From positions 124,001 through 188,000 of the forward strand of contig JALDZX010000038.1 in the NCBI GenBank assembly GCA_022813865.1: a stretch of 64,000 nt of DNA. Direction: 5' to 3'. The translations under genes and the position numbers were made by a program. This DNA is from Xylographa opegraphella. Lineage: Eukaryota. Below the pieces are notes generated by a model, which had not been told where the DNA came from, ran no database searches, and saw only the letters and a list, made by a program, of their open reading frames with translations. Positions 4,703-56,661 of the stretch are shown in pieces. The number at the start of each line of letters is the position of its first letter. Position 1 is the first letter of the stretch.

Positions 4703-5792
4703 ATGACTTCCGTCAGCCCCATCCCCACGGTGGTGCCGACCCTCCCCGAGATCCAGAAAGCCAGTGAAACTGGAACTCGTACACTATGGTAAGCTACATC
4801 GATAATACTTTTGATCTATCCTGCATCATCGTGCTGATGTCGGCCAGGGTTGTCTTCGTGATCATGGTGATCTCGTCGCTCGCCTTCTATGCCATGGCTT
4901 TCCGTGTCCCAGTGGTAAGTCTCTGAGCCCTGAGACGGCTTGCGTAAGCTCGAGCTCCGGTGTTGACAATAATACTCAGCAAAAACGTCTGTTCCACATC
5001 TTGACTGCGTTCATCACCACCTTTGCCGCCATCTCGTACTTCGCCATGGCCATGGGTGACGGCATCTCGTACTCCCACAACACCGAGACGGAGACCCACA
5101 AGCACATCCCCGATACCACCGTCGATGTCTACCGCCAGGTCTACTGGGCCCGATACGTCGACTGGAGTGTCACCACCCCACTTTTGCTCATGGATCTCGC
5201 TTTCCTTGCCGGCCTCAGCGGTGCCAACATCCTCGTGGCCGTCGTCGCTGATATTATCATGATCCTCACCGGTCTGTTCGCTGCTTTCGGATCCAACGAG
5301 AGTGCTCTGTGGGGATACTACGCCATGGCCTGCATTGCCTACCTTGTCGTCATCTACCAGCTCGCAATTCACGGCCGTGCCATGGCAATGTCCAAGGATT
5401 CCAAGACCGGCACTTTCTTCCAGGCCATCGGTGCATTCACTTTGGTCCTCTGGACTGCTTACCCAATGTAAAACGAACCCCCTTTACCTTTGCTCATTGA
5501 CGAAAGCTAAGAGTCTCCAGTGTCTGGGGTATTGCGGACGGATCCCGCAACATCAACGTCGATGCCGAGATCATCTCATACGCCGTCCTTGATGTTCTCG
5601 CCAAGCCCGTCTTCGGCTTCTGGCTCCTCTTCACTCACGATGCTATGCCAGAGACGTGAGTTCGATATCTCCATCGCTGGCTCAGAATATGATTAACATT
5701 TCAGCAGATCCGTTTCGCTTGAGGGATTCTGGGCTCACGGTCTCGGAAAGGAGGGCTCCCTCCGCGTCGGTGACGATGATGAGGGTGCATAA
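4703..5792 (+). CDS. Fungal type-1 rhodopsin (Leptosphaeria rhodopsin/NOP-1 clade), 5 exons
   Basis: Introns 4789-4847, 4915-4979, 5468-5520 and about 5656-5707; helix C ARYVDWSVTTPLLLMD; helix G LDVLAKP carrying the retinal lysine; C-terminus GFWAHGLGKEGSLRVGDDDEGA. Confidence 0.93.
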
Positions 5793-37382: not shown

Positions 37383-37752
37383 AGTGACAGAACTTTGACG
37401 GTAGATCGTTTTATGTACAGTTGCGTAGAAGTGGGAGATCGGGACGTGGGAAATATTACTGGACCGCGTCCTGATGTTAGCTCTGTCAGTCGCATTTTCT
37501 TGGTCGTGGAAGCTTAGGTAGTACCCCGGCTCACAATCCCTGATTGCGGGGCCGGGATTAAGTAGCATCCGCCCGACCTGTCAGCCTTATTTGGGATGAT
37601 ATTGTACAATCACAAGCCTTTAATAACGTGCAGTGGCATATCTCAGGAAGCACTCATCCTTTTTTGAGCAGAGAGGCCTGTAGTGGCTACCACTGCATTT
37701 ATTATTCACAAGCATCTCAATACTGTAACAGCTGATCGCCAGTCTGCAGAAG

Positions 37753-39360
37753 ATGGTTGTCGACACAACGTATTATGACGCTTTAGGCGTCAGGCCTACA
37801 GCTTCTGAGTTGGATATTAAGAAAGCATACAGGAAACTAGCTATCACTACCCATCCTGACAAGAACCCTGGAGACGAGACAGCACATGCTCGCTTTCAAG
37901 CTATAGGCGAGGCTTATCAAGTCCTTAGCAATGACGAGTTACGGAAACGATATGACAAATTTGGAAAAGAGCAAGCTATGCCAGGAGGAGGGTTTGAGGA
38001 TCCTGCCGAGTTCTTTACCATGATATTTGGCGGAGAAGCTTTTGTGGACCTTATAGGAGAGATCTCATTGATGAAGGATTTGACGAAAACGATGGACATC
38101 ACAATGAGGCAGATGGAAGAGGAGGATGCTGCCGAGTCAGCGGAACTGAAGATGGAGGCAAAGGATAAGGATAACGCAGCTAAGAGTAGTGCAACACCTT
38201 CAACGAGCACAGTACCATCTACTCCAGGCGTAATACCTCCCACTCCATTCGTTGCCGAAGAGAGAACAGCGCATACACCTACGACCAGCTCTTCCTTGCC
38301 TTATAGTCCTACTTCCGACCTCAAGCCACCCCGCAATGACAGTGCCGCCTCTTCGTCTGGGGCCTCAACCCCGCGCCGGCAGCTGGGCCAGCAGGCACTG
38401 ATGGATAGATCAGAGGAAGACGCTCGTATGGATGCAGCAGGCTTGACAACAGAAGAAAAGGAGTTGCGTAAGAAGGACAAGAAGAAAGGGCTTTCGAAGG
38501 AGCAGAGGGAAGAGCTAGCTGCATACGAAGCCGAGAGGAAGCGCATACGTGACGAGAGGGTGGAGACTCTTGCAAAGAAGCTTCTCGACCGAATAAGTAT
38601 ATGGACGGAAACAGACAAGGGTAACGATGTTACGAAGGCGTTCCAGGAGAAAACGCGACTGGAGGTGGAAAACTTGAAAATGGAGTCGTTTGGGTTGGAG
38701 ATTCTCCATGCCGTTGGCAACACATATCTGCAGAAAGCCACGTCTTTTCTCAAGTCTCAGAAATTTCTCGGCATTTCGGGGTTCTTTTCGAGATTGAAGG
38801 ACAAAGGCACCTTGGCAAAGGACACTTGGGCCACGATATCGACGGCTCTCGATGCTCAAATGACAATGGAGGAGATGGCCAAGATGGAAGAAAAGGGTGG
38901 AGAAGATTGGACGGATGAGAAAAAGGCAGAGTACGAGAAGCGGGTCACGGGAAAAATCCTTGCTGCTGCATGGAAGGGTAGTAGATATGAAATACAAGGA
39001 GTGCTGCGCGATGTTTGCGACAAGGTTCTGAATGACAAGAATGTGAAAATGGAGAAGCGAATTGAGAGGGCACATGCATTAGTCCTTTGTGGCACAGTCT
39101 ATCAAAAAGTAAGCACAACCAATAATCATTTTGTCACCTTGCTGAACCTAATATAGGCTCACCGAGATCCCGAGGAAGAGGGTGATTACATGGCATTCGA
39201 GCAGCTCATGGCCGAAGCAGCCGCAAAGAAGGGCAAGGATGACAAGAAAGATGGCAAGAAAGGAAAGAAAGAAGAAGCAAAGAAAGAGGAATCGACGCCA
39301 ACATCCTCGAGTCAACATTCGTCTCACATGCATCACAAGCAGAAAGAAGGGCCTTCATAG
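37753..39360 (+). CDS. DJP1: J-domain protein with DnaJ-X domain (Djp1/Caj1-like)
   Basis: YYDALGV...IKKAYRKLA...HPDKN; LKMESFGLEILHAVG; EIQGVLRDVCDKVL; one intron about 39109-39157; stop 39358-39360. Confidence 0.85.
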
Positions 39361-39768: not shown

Positions 39769-40401
39769 TCAGCCACCGCCGCCTTCCACGACCCGCCTCA
39801 ACTCTCCCATCCGTCTCCCGAATGTCTCCACCAGCCCCTCCAGCCCCAGCCCCTCAACCTCTTCTGCCTTCAGCCCTTCGGTCCCCTCGATCCTTAGTAT
39901 TAACCCACCCTCCCCACCACCACCCCCTTCCAGCGTCGGCGCTTTCCCAATCTCCGCGCTCAGCACCTGCCAGTCGCCCGTCAGGCTATGCACGGACTCC
40001 ACAGCGGTACCCGAAGCAGCGAGGTTGAGAAGCACGTAGCGCTCCTGTGTCTCCGGAACCGCTCTCGGGGGTAAACTCGCACCGCTCGACTGGTTCGCCC
40101 GGGGCTGGGCGGCCTGGGAATCGTGGATGTGGAGGAGGGTGTTGGTCAAGAGGTCGGAGTCGTCGTCGGAGAAAATGTAGTGGACCGTGGGGTGATGGGT
40201 GGTGGGCGAGTGGGCGTCTTCAATGAGGGTGAAGAAGGGGCTGAAGGGTTGGGAGGCTGCCTCCGTTGTGGAAGGCTCGGCGGGTGGGGAGGGAGGGATT
40301 TGTGTTGTGGTGGAGTCTTCGGAGAGGTCTTTTGGTAGAGCGGAAGGAAGCAGGGGTGATACTGCTGCGCGAGAGGGAAGCGGGGTGGTGGGGCGGGGCA
40401 T
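39769..40401 (-). CDS. Conserved fungal protein, candidate Atg31-like autophagy factor
   Basis: Single-exon 210-aa ORF; HPTVHYIFSDDD, YVLLNLAASG, SLTGDWQVL and C-terminal helix LEGLVETFGRRMGELRRVV. Confidence 0.7.
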   Translation of the reverse strand: MPRPTTPLPSRAAVSPLLPSALPKDLSEDSTTTQIPPSPPAEPSTTEAASQPFSPFFTLIEDAHSPTTHHPTVHYIFSDDDSDLLTNTLLHIHDSQAAQPRANQSSGASLPPRAVPETQERYVLLNLAASGTAVESVHSLTGDWQVLSAEIGKAPTLEGGGGGEGGLILRIEGTEGLKAEEVEGLGLEGLVETFGRRMGELRRVVEGGGG

Positions 40402-41006: not shown

Positions 41007-41443
41007 TTAGTCGTTTCCTTCGTCGCTCTGCTTCCATTCGAATTCTTGAATTCATATCAGGCAAAGTCCTAAAACGATAAAGGATATAACGTACTTTGCC
41101 TACACATAGGACATAAGCCTTTCGATGAATCTTGCTGGATCCATGTAACAAGGCAGTGCTATAAGTAATTAGTATCACTGAACTCTAGATTTCTAGGGAA
41201 TACTCACCATATGGAATGAGTGCCCGCATTTGCCAATGACTATAAATAGTTTGTCAGACAACCCTTTGTGTTGTTTGCTATCCTTTGCATGATGTACATA
41301 CGAAGAGCACAGTCGTCTCCAGGATACTTGCAGGTAGGGCACGTTCCGTCGAACTGGACCCTACATATTCCGCACACTTCGTCGTCCGGCATGTCCCATC
41401 GCCACGACGCTACTCCATTCCATTGCTTTATGACAACCTTCAT
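41007..41443 (-). CDS. APC11: Anaphase-promoting complex RING-H2 subunit 11, 4 exons
   Basis: WRWDMPDDEVCGICRVQFDGTCPTCKYPGDDC, GKCGHSFHMHCL, LCPMCRQ. Confidence 0.95.
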
Positions 41444-41735
41444 CTAGGGAGATCTCAATGAGGATCTAATACTTCCCTTTTGATAGCGAGTGACGGAAAA
41501 GTGTATAAAGTTGAAGTCTGAATCTATTATTTAATTAAGCGAATTGGTTGCGGGGTCGACACTCTGGTGTTTTCGTGTTTTCTTATCGCCAGTCAAGACA
41601 GGCACAATATTGATCAAATCCACCACTCGTTTGTGGTTCAGGGGGCTAGTGATAGTGGGCGGAAGTCTTTGGTACGTGATTCTACCAGATTAGTATACAC
41701 GGCGCAAAATTCACCAGATTGATTATTGTTAGATC

Positions 41736-42770
41736 ATGAATGTGGCGGCCTTCCGTGGCTCAAGCAGGGCTTCGTCAAAATATTACACTATCTACAAGCT
41801 GCACTCCACGTTCTGTCGGATGGCCTCTAGTGCTACAGCTGGGCACTACGAACAAATACTTATCAGCCCTAGGGAAGCTGCTGATAAAATGGCTATGAAT
41901 GAAAGTAGTCCTTCCACAAGTCGTATTGTGCCACTGTGTGCAGCATGGTTCTTACCAAATGATCCCCAAGGCCGTACCGGGCGGAAGGTTTTCGCCCAGA
42001 CACGGATACCCGGAGCACGCTTCTTCGACATTGATGGTGTCAAAGATGAAGAGTCCCCATATCCACACATGTTACCAACTGCCGAACGCTTCGCTCAAGC
42101 TATGTCCGAATTAGGACTCAAACGGGACGACGATCTGATGGTGTACGACACGCATGAGCTTGGGATATTTTCCGCACCTCGAGTTGCATGGATGTTGCAA
42201 GTCTTCGGTCATCCCAAAATTCACATCTTGAACAATTTCAGACTCTGGGTGGAACAAGGATATCCTACAACTACTGGTGAACCGTTGTCTAACGTGCAAG
42301 TCAGTACTAGCTATCCGGTACCGACTTTCGATGTGGACAGAGTCATTACTTTCAGAGGTGTAAGGGATATTGTGAAGGAGCAGGGGGGGAAGGGATCCGA
42401 AGGAGTACAAATCATTGATGCTAGGAGTGCTGGGCGGTTTTCCGGCAGCGAACCAGAACCTCGTCCAGGACTGTCCAGCGGACACATGCCGGGAAGCATC
42501 AATCTTCCTTTGCCAGAGATTCTTGATCCGAAGACGAAAGCATTTTTGCCGAAAGAAGAGCTCAAAAAGGTCTTTCAACGTAAAGGTCTCGAGCCTGAGA
42601 GGCCAATCGTGACCACATGTGGGACTGGCGTGATGGCTGCAGCCCTTGACACAGCTCTACAAGAGGCGCAGTTTGGTGCAGGGGTTGACAGGAGAGTTTA
42701 TGATGGGAGCTGGACCGAGTGGGCGCAAAGAGGGTCAGAGAAGGATGGTTTGATAGAGCAATCGACTTGA
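41736..42770 (+). CDS. TUM1: 3-mercaptopyruvate/thiosulfate sulfurtransferase (tandem rhodanese)
   Basis: RIPGARFFDID, PYPHMLP, IIDARSAGRF, SSGHMPGS, active-site CGTGV, VYDGSWTEW. Confidence 0.93.
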   Translation: MNVAAFRGSSRASSKYYTIYKLHSTFCRMASSATAGHYEQILISPREAADKMAMNESSPSTSRIVPLCAAWFLPNDPQGRTGRKVFAQTRIPGARFFDIDGVKDEESPYPHMLPTAERFAQAMSELGLKRDDDLMVYDTHELGIFSAPRVAWMLQVFGHPKIHILNNFRLWVEQGYPTTTGEPLSNVQVSTSYPVPTFDVDRVITFRGVRDIVKEQGGKGSEGVQIIDARSAGRFSGSEPEPRPGLSSGHMPGSINLPLPEILDPKTKAFLPKEELKKVFQRKGLEPERPIVTTCGTGVMAAALDTALQEAQFGAGVDRRVYDGSWTEWAQRGSEKDGLIEQST

Positions 42771-53454: not shown

Positions 53455-54216
53455 GAGCTCAAACAATTTTTCAATTTTGTAGCAGGTCACAGTTAAACAG
53501 GTCTCTGGCTTGGCTTGAAAAAGTATCCAAGATTAAGGACGTTCAGTTCCACAGAATGTCTCGTCTGTGCGAAAATGATAGGGGGACGATCCTTCGGGAA
53601 ACATGTAGAATGAATGAGAAAACGCTTTCAGGGATAGAATGCAATCGCTCTGCCTGGAGTGTATCCAAAGAACATACTACACTCCATCCATATCATTATT
53701 GGCTCATCCTTCGCTCCGATATTCGAAACCTGGCAGGACAGTTCGAGTCTTCTAGCGGCTCGTCATGGCGATCGAGGCTGTGTGCGATCTCATTTCATTT
53801 CTACATAGCCAAGGCTCAGCTCGGTACTGTCACTTCGAGAGCTCGACCAATGCGAAGGTCGAATAATCGACATAGCCCTGTACCTGTGGTCCAGGCGGTT
53901 ACTTGTAAGTAGATGGCTGTGCTATTCAGGATTCCAGAGCTGATTCCTATTCGCCCACCTGGGGTGGCACGGACCACTGCGGCAGGTAAGGCAAGCCGCC
54001 AGGCATTTCTTGTCTCATCCTTTTAATACCCAGTTGAGGTCTGAATTTGAACGTATGATCTGGAATATTTTCTAGGCAGTTCACTTCATTTAGCGCCGTG
54101 GCCATATATTGTAAGTAGAATATCTTAGAGTCCTCTGGAAGCCGAGACGATTTCCACTATAGCCCTGAAAGGCATCTCCAATCGCCTGTGTTTGCGTATT
54201 TGTCACAGATCAAACA

Positions 54217-56661
54217 ATGCTTCCCTACGGTATCCAGCCCGGAAAGGTGTTTGGATCTGCCCGTTATAATCATAAAATCCTAGATGAGGATGAGATCAGG
54301 AGTTTCTTCGAAAGAGCAGGTATGGGAAATGCCCCAGAAAGTTCTTCACGCCCGCCTCGTCGTCCAAACCCACAACCGCGCGTGATCCACCTGCAAAGGC
54401 AGCCAGAGTCACAGGTACAATATCCTCAAGACTCGAATTTGCTAGTCCATAAAAAGCAGCACGCAACTGAAAGAAGCACAGATCGTCGTTTTAATATTGC
54501 ATCAGATATTGTTGCATCACCACAGCTTCCAGTTGGAGCACGGTCGTCTCGCGGGCGTGGATCTGGCCGCTTATCGAGCCACAGAGATCTTTTGGCTCTC
54601 CAGCGTCCAAGCAATGTTTCTCTAGGCGGTTCCTCCGGTACCAGCCTCTCCGAGCTGCCGAAGAACAGCGACCAAGTCATGGAAAATGTCTTTTGTGGCC
54701 ACTGTCAACTCTTTATCGATGAATCTCGGACAGTAAGAATGCGGGCTGTGGGAACAACCACCGGGCACAACGGCGGAGGTTTGGATATATACGTCGAGCC
54801 CAGTAACAAGAAAAGAAAAGGAGAAGATGTCATTGAGAGTTTTCCTCACTACGACAACATCGGAGCCCTTCAGCAGTCGGCCTTGAACGGATGTCACCTT
54901 TGCTCCCTCTTCGCCGCTCCAGACCCAACGGCCTCTGAGCTGCCGCCGAATTACAGCTCAAAACCATATTCGTTGTGGGTACATTGTAAGCAAAATTACG
55001 ATGGCCCAGGACGGATTGAGATGGACGTACAAGGGCATCGTCCGAAGACGACGTATATCTCCTACGACAGACCGCTAGCGAGAATTCAAGGTTCACTCAG
55101 GTATAAACGGACGGATGCAGATGAAGTTTTGAAGCTTGCAAAAGTCTGGCTTGAATCCTGCCTCGACCATCACGAGAAATGCCGTCACAGCTCCAGTGGA
55201 TGTGGTTTCGTCCCTACTCGCCTCTTAAAGATTACTACAAGCGGCCCTGTTCTCCTTTGTGTACAACTGTGTCTTACGAACAGCAAAGACTTCGACCCAT
55301 GCACTCCTTACCTGGCCCTCAGCCACTGCTGGGGGGCGTCTGATATCCTCAAACTTACAAAATCCTCCCTGCCCACCTTCATCAGCAATCTTCCACTCGC
55401 CTCCCTTCCTCAAAACTTCAGCGACGCCGCCCTCATAACCGCACGTCTCGGTTATACATACCTGTGGGTCGACTCCCTCTGCATTATTCAGGACTGCCCC
55501 GAAGACTGGGACAAGGAAGCCGCAACCATGGGCAACGTCTACAGCAACGCAGTGTGTACCATCGCTGCACTTGGCGTCACTGACAGCCGTGGTGGCTGCT
55601 TCGTGACGCGTAATCCACTGTCTTTTGAGCCTTGCCTGCTGCGTGACGGCGACGGTAGGGATACCATTTGGGCAGAGAACCAGCGGGTACAGCGGCCAGA
55701 TTCAGAGGGCGAAATGAAGCCCCCACTGCATCGGCGTGCGTGGGTCGTGCAGGAGCGGGCACTGGCGCCGCGGACGTTGTATTTCGGGTCTGAGATGGTG
55801 TTTTGGGAATGCTTGGAAGGGACGGCATCGGAAGAAATACCAGGATTGAAAGCGATGGCGTCTAAGAATTCGGATGATCGATCCGACAATCCATCTTTGG
55901 CATCGTCGTTGGGCCTAAAAGCGACGCTGGTTACGATGAAGAAGTCATGCCGCAGTGGCGATTGGGCGGACTGGGAGTGTTTCTGGTGGAAGATGGTCAA
56001 GGAGTACACCGCGAGCAAACTGACGTTCGACAGCGACAAGTGGACCGCGTTCTCGGGATTGGCGATTGCGATCGAGCAGCATACTCAGACGCGACTCTAC
56101 CATGGGCTTTGGGAGTCGAACGTCTTCGACGAGCTGCTCTGGAAAGTGCTGAAGCCTGGCCGTAGACTGGACTTTGACGCCCCGTCATGGTCGTGGCTTT
56201 CAGTCGATGCGGGCGTCCATGAACAGCGCTACAATTACAACAGCGATTTCCGGCAAGCGGCCACGGTTTCCATTCCACCCTCCGATAATTCACAACGGTC
56301 CAACAAACTGTCGGTACGAGGACGCCTGCTACGGTTCACTTCGCGCGTGATACACACGGGAAGCGGAAAGCGGGAATACAAATTCAAGCTCCAGAACGGG
56401 CGTCCAACGCCGGAACGGTCCACCGACGGCCGCTGGCATCCAGACATCACGCCGGACGAGAAGTGGGAGCTGTCGATCTTACAGTTCGTCACCACGGCGT
56501 ATAAAGAAAGCTACGGGCTGGTGGTTCGGCCTCTCGATGCTTCGAAGACGAGCTGGCAACGGGTCGGGTACTACGGGATGTGCTGGGCCCATGAGGATCA
56601 CGGGACTCAGATGGCACCGCCGCGGTATTTTGGGGAGATAGAAACTGTGACTCTCGTATGA
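54217..56661 (+). CDS. Intact HET-domain protein, 814 aa
   Basis: FCGHC...SALNGCHLC, PTRLLKI, YLALSHCWG, LPQNFSDA, YLWVDSLCIIQD, EAATMGNVYSNA, RAWVVQER, APSWSWLS. Confidence 0.9.
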   Translation: MLPYGIQPGKVFGSARYNHKILDEDEIRSFFERAGMGNAPESSSRPPRRPNPQPRVIHLQRQPESQVQYPQDSNLLVHKKQHATERSTDRRFNIASDIVASPQLPVGARSSRGRGSGRLSSHRDLLALQRPSNVSLGGSSGTSLSELPKNSDQVMENVFCGHCQLFIDESRTVRMRAVGTTTGHNGGGLDIYVEPSNKKRKGEDVIESFPHYDNIGALQQSALNGCHLCSLFAAPDPTASELPPNYSSKPYSLWVHCKQNYDGPGRIEMDVQGHRPKTTYISYDRPLARIQGSLRYKRTDADEVLKLAKVWLESCLDHHEKCRHSSSGCGFVPTRLLKITTSGPVLLCVQLCLTNSKDFDPCTPYLALSHCWGASDILKLTKSSLPTFISNLPLASLPQNFSDAALITARLGYTYLWVDSLCIIQDCPEDWDKEAATMGNVYSNAVCTIAALGVTDSRGGCFVTRNPLSFEPCLLRDGDGRDTIWAENQRVQRPDSEGEMKPPLHRRAWVVQERALAPRTLYFGSEMVFWECLEGTASEEIPGLKAMASKNSDDRSDNPSLASSLGLKATLVTMKKSCRSGDWADWECFWWKMVKEYTASKLTFDSDKWTAFSGLAIAIEQHTQTRLYHGLWESNVFDELLWKVLKPGRRLDFDAPSWSWLSVDAGVHEQRYNYNSDFRQAATVSIPPSDNSQRSNKLSVRGRLLRFTSRVIHTGSGKREYKFKLQNGRPTPERSTDGRWHPDITPDEKWELSILQFVTTAYKESYGLVVRPLDASKTSWQRVGYYGMCWAHEDHGTQMAPPRYFGEIETVTLV

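Follow-up and report, generated by a model that had tools for sequence, protein, structure and literature searches.

A probable divergent orthologue of yeast Atg31 in Xylographa opegraphella and other Pezizomycotina

Can Atg31, an autophagy protein regarded as missing from filamentous fungi, be recognised in a short gene of Xylographa opegraphella? In yeast, as described in excerpts of two papers (PMC4506457; PMC12482441), Atg17 consists of four long helices and Atg29 of one strand and helices, and Atg31 is an eight-stranded sandwich to which the Atg29 N-terminus donates one strand. The C-terminal helix of yeast Atg31 binds Atg17 on its concave side, and Atg31 bridges Atg29 to Atg17. The same excerpts present Atg31 as the sole means by which Atg29 joins Atg17, and Atg31 is said there not to fold properly without Atg29 (PMC4506457; PMC12482441). 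With regard to filamentous fungi, the absence of ATG31, which the earlier note on this DNA had mentioned, is indeed stated in excerpts of three papers, for F. graminearum (PMC5594004), for filamentous species generally (PMC6550541) and for M. oryzae (PMC9643702), the last of these reporting that Atg17 and Atg29 are present in M. oryzae. Since Atg29 reaches Atg17 only via Atg31, filamentous fungi with an 'orphan' Atg29 and no Atg31 have looked paradoxical. Hypotheses have been built on this absence: either Atg101 takes the place of Atg31, or some novel mechanism is at work (excerpts of PMC5594004, PMC6550541 and PMC9643702).

The evolutionary literature points in the same direction. According to the excerpted text of a 2015 review, Atg29 and Atg31 are missing wherever Atg101 is present, and vice versa (PMC4506457). 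A 2025 study on the evolution of the Atg1 complex, which covers Saccharomycetes and Schizosaccharomycetes only, suggests in excerpt that Atg29 and Atg31 might have emerged within yeasts, and its available text nowhere mentions the terms filamentous, Pezizomycotina, Aspergillus, Magnaporthe, Neurospora or Ascomycota (PMC12482441). No earlier report of Atg31 in filamentous fungi or Pezizomycotina, and no mention of AN10405, was found among the full texts searched and the titles listed, a body of literature outside which most subscription journals lie.

The window, that is, the whole stretch of 64,000 nucleotides that was analysed, contains at 39769..40401 an ATG-to-stop open reading frame of 210 codons plus stop, as seen from the list of open reading frames and the translation. 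The earlier note had described a 210-residue single-exon frame at this place without giving a strand; the frame does exist and lies on the minus strand. The four blocks that had been quoted from it are all present in the translation and in the same order, namely HPTVHYIFSDDD at residues 70-81, YVLLNLAASGTAVESVHSLTGDWQVL at 122-147, LILRIEG at 167-173 and LGLEGLVETFGRRMGELRRV at 185-204. The protein (P0001) can be aligned with homologues over its full length, and its start methionine and the four blocks are aligned without an intron-like break, so that a complete single-exon coding sequence fits. Nearest to it are proteins labelled 'hypothetical' from six Xylographa species, with 76-83% identity over the whole length, and further close relatives are found in other lichen-forming Lecanoromycetes. 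On sequence grounds, the frame at 39769..40401 is a real conserved gene, and its conservation suggests that it is also expressed.

A search of the databases with the protein itself retrieved 236 proteins at E ≤ 0.001. A 40-sequence profile (HMMER, exhaustive) matched 728 cluster representatives at E ≤ 0.001; a threshold of E ≤ 1e-10 left 632 of them, and one of E ≤ 1e-30 left 370. Named members are found in five classes, the Lecanoromycetes, the Geoglossomycetes, the Eurotiomycetes (Aspergillus, including A. nidulans ANIA_10405, Penicillium and Talaromyces), the Leotiomycetes (Sclerotinia, Monilinia, Pseudogymnoascus, Coleophoma and Phialocephala) and the Sordariomycetes (Verticillium dahliae VDAG_06048, Colletotrichum, many Fusarium, Trichoderma and Cytospora). 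In the databases they all go under the names 'hypothetical' or 'uncharacterized', the sole exceptions being a few gene models that bear the name of APC11. Further deep clades in a tree of the family may include Dothideomycetes. Among the matches listed, no orthologue was named as one of M. oryzae, N. crassa or F. graminearum, and only relatives appeared. Yeast Atg31 was not found among the best 150 of the 728 profile matches, and when it was sought with two other members of the family, P0238 and P0271, only Pezizomycotina proteins were returned.

Two AlphaFold2 models of the protein were built. The first, based on 40 sequences, had a pLDDT of 65.2, with only the C-terminal sheet and helix confident and the N-terminal block unfolded. 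The second, template-free and based on 147 diverse sequences, had a mean pLDDT of 80.8 and a pTM of 0.67, the five models lying at 79-81, and comprises a strand at 57-62, a confident extended stretch at 68-81, a helix at 83-97, a variable linker, four strands and a helix at 187-208. The Pro/Ser/Thr-rich N-terminal tail (residues 1-50; 40252..40401, minus strand) is predicted to be disordered and is poorly conserved, its pLDDT ranging from 51 to 74 per 10-residue block in the 147-sequence model and its length and sequence varying among homologues. Residues 53-97 (40111..40245, minus strand; pLDDT 85-94), the most conserved block, comprise, apart from the helix 83-97, the first strand (FFTLIED) and the invariant HHPTVHYIFSDDD segment, and residues 70-81 within this block are placed confidently in the second model without being assigned as a strand. 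A Ser/Pro-rich linker (residues 98-119; 40045..40110, minus strand; pLDDT about 60-72) is very variable in length across the family and strongly enlarged in Eurotiales. The second part of the sandwich is formed by residues 120-175 (39877..40044, minus strand; pLDDT 80-94), in which DSSP assigns four beta-strands on the model (123-127, 134-139, 145-153 and 167-174) and which hold S139, W144, A154-P155 and G173. At the C-terminus, residues 187-208 (39778..39843, minus strand) form an amphipathic helix in both models, which would be the Atg17-binding element.

P71, Y75, F77 and D80 do not vary in any of the 147 aligned sequences, and at least 90% of these retain F57, L59, H70, H74, D79, S139, W144, A154, P155 and G173. 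In the C-terminal helix, the eight heptad-like positions 187, 190, 191, 194, 198, 201, 204 and 205 carry large hydrophobic residues in at least 94% of these sequences, and at most of the positions in between polar residues predominate. No parts of the family are conserved as well as the N-terminal block and the C-terminal helix; an amphipathic C-terminal helix of the Atg31 kind is present and conserved, and by analogy it may bind Atg17. The Eurotiales members (Aspergillus, Penicillium and Talaromyces; for instance P0045, P0051 and P0100) bear a low-complexity insert of 40-70 residues between strands 1 and 2 of the C-terminal sheet (columns ~270-320 of the 40-sequence alignment). They also bear long acidic C-terminal tails, and the insert and the tails account for their length of 330-370 residues, as compared with about 210 in lichen fungi.

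With regard to the relationship with Atg31 at the sequence level, the protein alone matched no Pfam family even at E ≤ 10. When 164 relatives were scanned one by one, 15 of them (6 of 40 and 9 of 124) matched PF09795, the ATG31 family, and the other 149 did not. Apart from RING domains of fused neighbour genes, PF09795 was the only Pfam family that recurred among the relatives; DUF6907, the next commonest (3 of 164, E 0.039-0.071), was rejected as noise. The best scores were obtained for P0238 (25.0 bits, with a cutoff of 25 and an E of 2.2e-5), P0219 (23.2 bits) and P0116 (19.7 bits). P0238 is the one relative that reaches the curated cutoff, the 14 other matching relatives scoring 12-23 bits, and it is a clear member of the family, with an E of 4.3e-47 against the 40-sequence profile. 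The matches are colinear and begin at profile positions 25-36; the FFTLIED...HYIFSDDD block always falls on positions ~25-51, and the block corresponding to residues 53-97 is aligned with positions ~30-51 in relatives. In P0014, residues 53-208 are matched to positions 34-152 of the 156 in the profile, and since the matches of P0014 and P0018 extend to positions 151-152 of 156, they include the C-terminal helix.

A precomputed PF09795 tag is carried by P0238 (Coleophoma crateriformis) and P0250 (Phialocephala subalpina). The expectation of the earlier note that the Pfam ATG31 profile would be hit thus holds in part, for some relatives, one of them at the cutoff and two by their tags, and not for the protein by itself. 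Likewise, its description of the homologue as unrecognised agrees with the names under which the members are deposited, and has to be qualified for the two Leotiomycete members that Pfam already assigns to ATG31. Searches of PDB chain sequences with P0001, P0116, P0238, P0219 and the family profiles A1 and A2 found no Atg31 chain at E ≤ 10; the matches that they did return, a designed four-helix bundle hit through a Gly run, ETAA1 and nanobodies, were set aside as low-complexity or coiled-coil noise. Taken by itself, the sequence link to Atg31 is suggestive, and it is transitive, not direct.

A protein language model provided a further comparison. In the ESM Atlas, the best named cluster was 'Cis1p', 50% of whose members carry PF09795. 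For the whole protein its score was 0.90, with 197 of the 256 features shared, and for residues 50-210 it was 0.91, with 200 of 256. CIS1 is the older name of ATG31. By the rule of thumb for the ESM Atlas, a family found in one of the ten best named matches is uncertain, and as this is the case for ATG31 here, the match serves as a lead only. In the search of named clusters with residues 50-210, the second-best cluster was that of a 170-residue 'hypothetical protein' with 438 members, mostly from Basidiomycota (score 0.89, 191 of 256 features), which may represent a more distant Atg31-like family outside the Ascomycota.

The decisive evidence came from the structure searches. Chains of the Atg17-Atg31-Atg29 complex already ranked first in both searches with the first model (Foldseek E 0.1; VIA Z 4.2). 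When the second model was compared by VIA-align with 48,161 PDB representatives, 4hpq_B was found with a Z of 8.4 and an rmsd of 3.1 Å over 109 of 115 residues at 22% identity, residues 54-208 of the model being superposed on residues 11-145 of the chain. This was the only chain with a Z of at least 5, the second rank having a Z of 3.0. Over the 277 alignable Foldseek chains, VIA-align gave Z values of 8.4 for 4hpq_B, 8.3 for 4p1w_E and 8.2 for 5jhf_E, followed by 3.6, and the three alignments had an rmsd of 3.1-3.4 Å over 109-115 residues with 18-22% identity. Among the 350,542 chains searched by Foldseek itself, the five ranked highest were 4p1w_E/B, 5jhf_E/B and 4hpq_B, with a probability of 0.99-1.00, an E of 1.9e-3 to 1.7e-2 and a target TM of 0.51-0.63, the sixth rank having a probability of 0.15. 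The match to PDB entries of the Atg17-Atg31-Atg29 complex that the earlier note had proposed to look for was thus obtained, as the single outstanding one.

4HPQ, 4P1W and 5JHF are crystal structures of the Lachancea thermotolerans Atg17-Atg31-Atg29 complex. Their chains B and E are, by deduction from size, numbering and fold, Atg31, because only this subunit agrees with a length of ~115-135 residues, a numbering of 9-146 and a superposition on six strands and a terminal helix. Residues 120-175 of the model are among the parts superposed on these putative Atg31 chains in VIA-align, and its C-terminal helix is aligned with the end of the chains, up to chain residues 145/146. A best Z of 7-8 is common in VIA-align for models without a clear Foldseek match, and the case therefore rests on the gap to the second rank, on the near-complete coverage and on the agreement with Pfam and the language model. 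As far as a predicted model can show, the protein folds like crystallised Atg31: its core is a beta-sandwich, a helix comes after it at the C-terminus, and the whole can be superposed on the solved structures. No confident match to another family arose from the sequence or the structure searches, which bears out what had been anticipated for an Atg31 homologue.

Chains of the FIP200 C-terminal region, or Claw, appeared at Foldseek ranks 6 and 8-10, with a probability of at most 0.15 and a TM of at most 0.22 at these ranks and of at most 0.27 over the Claw rows as a whole, and were absent from the VIA-align lists; the likeness is probably due to chance. FIP200 is the animal counterpart of the Atg17 and Atg11 scaffolds, and its Claw is a small beta-rich domain of this metazoan autophagy scaffold. 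Atg101, which has a HORMA domain, is a partner of Atg13 in M. oryzae as well as in animals and fission yeast, and no HORMA proteins were present in the Foldseek or VIA-align results for the second model.

With regard to its genomic context, the Atg31-like frame lies directly downstream of a gene for APC11 (RING-H2, PF12861, three exon pieces) at about 41069-41443 on the minus strand, whose exons match PF12861 with E values of 2e-15 and 1e-9. The same order of the two genes in Penicillium and Colletotrichum explains the fused public gene models found there, and the fused models P0105, P0130, P0171, P0284 and P0289 bear the name 'anaphase-promoting complex subunit 11'. As far as sequences and gene models show, the synteny of APC11 and the Atg31-like gene is conserved across three classes. 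The other genes, among them those at 37729-39156, 41733-42770, 54169-56661 and 4815-5471, all four on the plus strand, are ordinary ones: the pair is flanked by a DnaJ and DnaJ-X chaperone and a rhodanese-domain protein, and the rest of the window contains a HET-domain gene, a bacteriorhodopsin-like opsin, Spc7/Knl1, an ABC transporter, translin, PIG-M and a squalene/phytoene synthase. Neither Atg29, Atg17 nor any other autophagy gene was found among the 35 open reading frames of the window that were scanned.

Taken together, the protein is probably a divergent Pezizomycotina orthologue of yeast Atg31, a reading that draws mainly on structure and to a lesser extent on sequence. The proposal of the earlier note that the gene encodes an Atg31 homologue is supported in this respect by the fold match in the PDB and by the PF09795 matches of relatives. 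The likeness to Atg31 (Cis1, PF09795) of budding yeasts extends over nearly the whole crystallised chain, and includes a structured core of similar size, a colinear Pfam profile in relatives, the amphipathic C-terminal helix and disordered Ser/Thr-rich regions. Conversely, the identity to the yeast protein is only 18-22% and the Xylographa protein falls below Pfam detection; it has an additional Pro/Ser/Thr-rich N-terminal tail of ~50 residues and an invariant HHPTVHYIFSDDD signature of its own, and the Eurotiales members of the family carry their 40-70-residue inserts. Furthermore, unlike yeast Atg31, the family occurs in organisms that, according to excerpts of PMC9643702, also have Atg101.

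By analogy with yeast, the protein would be a small adaptor in an Atg17-Atg31-Atg29 scaffold that starts starvation-induced autophagy. Its incomplete beta-sandwich core may be completed by the N-terminal strand of Atg29, and the invariant HHPTVHYIFSDDD segment is a candidate for the edge that receives this strand: residues 70-81 are placed without forming a strand, and the N-terminal block is unfolded in the shallow model, from which we infer an edge that awaits its partner strand. The amphipathic helix 187-208 would dock on the crescent-shaped Atg17, at its concave face. With the helix docked on Atg17 and the sandwich accepting the Atg29 strand, the Atg31-like protein would bridge Atg29 to Atg17. 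It is thus the comparison with yeast which suggests that the protein may bind Atg29 and Atg17 and take part in starvation-induced autophagy. The Ser/Thr/Pro-rich tail and linker may be regulatory and possibly phosphorylated, as has been reported for yeast Atg31 in the excerpted text of PMC4383750.

Three other explanations have to be weighed against the orthology to Atg31. That the frame at 39769..40401 arose by chance or is a pseudogene, with no functional gene, has a negligible probability and is effectively refuted by its conservation: the frame is intact and full-length, six Xylographa species have orthologues with 76-83% identity, and invariant residues are common to hundreds of homologues across five classes. 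An unrelated protein made of a small beta-sandwich and a helix might resemble Atg31 through convergence or chance, in which case the weak Pfam and language-model matches would be noise. Small beta-sandwiches are widespread and VIA-align often gives middling Z scores, and such a look-alike would agree with the lack of a Pfam match for the protein itself and of Atg31 in any PDB sequence search. It nevertheless appears quite improbable, since the Pfam HMM, the ESM features and two structure aligners, three kinds of method that take no input from one another, each put Atg31 first among known families. Moreover, the structural match extends over 109 of 115 residues, takes in the C-terminal helix and stands more than 5 Z units above the next chain, and one member of the family reaches the curated Pfam cutoff.

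The protein could also be a true relative of Atg31 with the same fold that has been put to another use and forms no Atg17-Atg31-Atg29 complex, its helix docking on another coiled-coil scaffold (e.g. Atg11) or on a partner outside autophagy. This appears unlikely, though less so than a chance resemblance. The functional steps set out above for an Atg31 are all drawn by analogy, the identity to crystallised Atg31 is just 18-22%, and tails and inserts in the family are lineage-specific, all of which would be compatible with such re-use. In addition, excerpts of PMC9643702 propose that Atg101 assumes the role of Atg31 in M. oryzae, as a functional stand-in for the 'missing' Atg31 of filamentous fungi. 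However, conservation in the family is highest in the elements that make the contacts in yeast, namely the edge of the sheet and the amphipathic C-terminal helix, and Atg29, which is known to be attached only via Atg31, has been kept in filamentous fungi (PMC9643702, in excerpt). With regard to Atg101 as a substitute, the excerpted review describes it as having no sequence or structural likeness to the Atg29-Atg31 pair and as binding Atg13, not Atg17 (PMC4506457).

If the protein is the orthologue of Atg31, the kind of protein is already known and its presence in Pezizomycotina is the new part, a novelty that is tempered by the fact that Pfam already tags at least two Leotiomycete members. A Pezizomycotina-wide protein with the Atg31 fold, present in Fusarium, Colletotrichum, Trichoderma, Sclerotinia and Penicillium among others, offers a concrete gene for functional work, and in many of these fungi the initiation of autophagy is important both for development and for the infection of plants. 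The identification of the family also corrects the 'APC11' mis-annotations. Furthermore, an Atg31-fold protein in Pezizomycotina changes the evolutionary account of the Atg1 complex. We lean, by a little over even chances, towards an Atg17-Atg31-Atg29 scaffold that goes back at least as far as the ancestor which Saccharomycotina and Pezizomycotina share and that in filamentous ascomycetes would exist side by side with Atg101 in a six-subunit hybrid Atg1 complex; the Basidiomycota look-alike cluster hints that the scaffold may be older still. Such a hybrid complex, if true, would overturn the rule of 'Atg101 or Atg29/Atg31, never both', and a substitution of Atg31 by Atg101 would no longer be needed.
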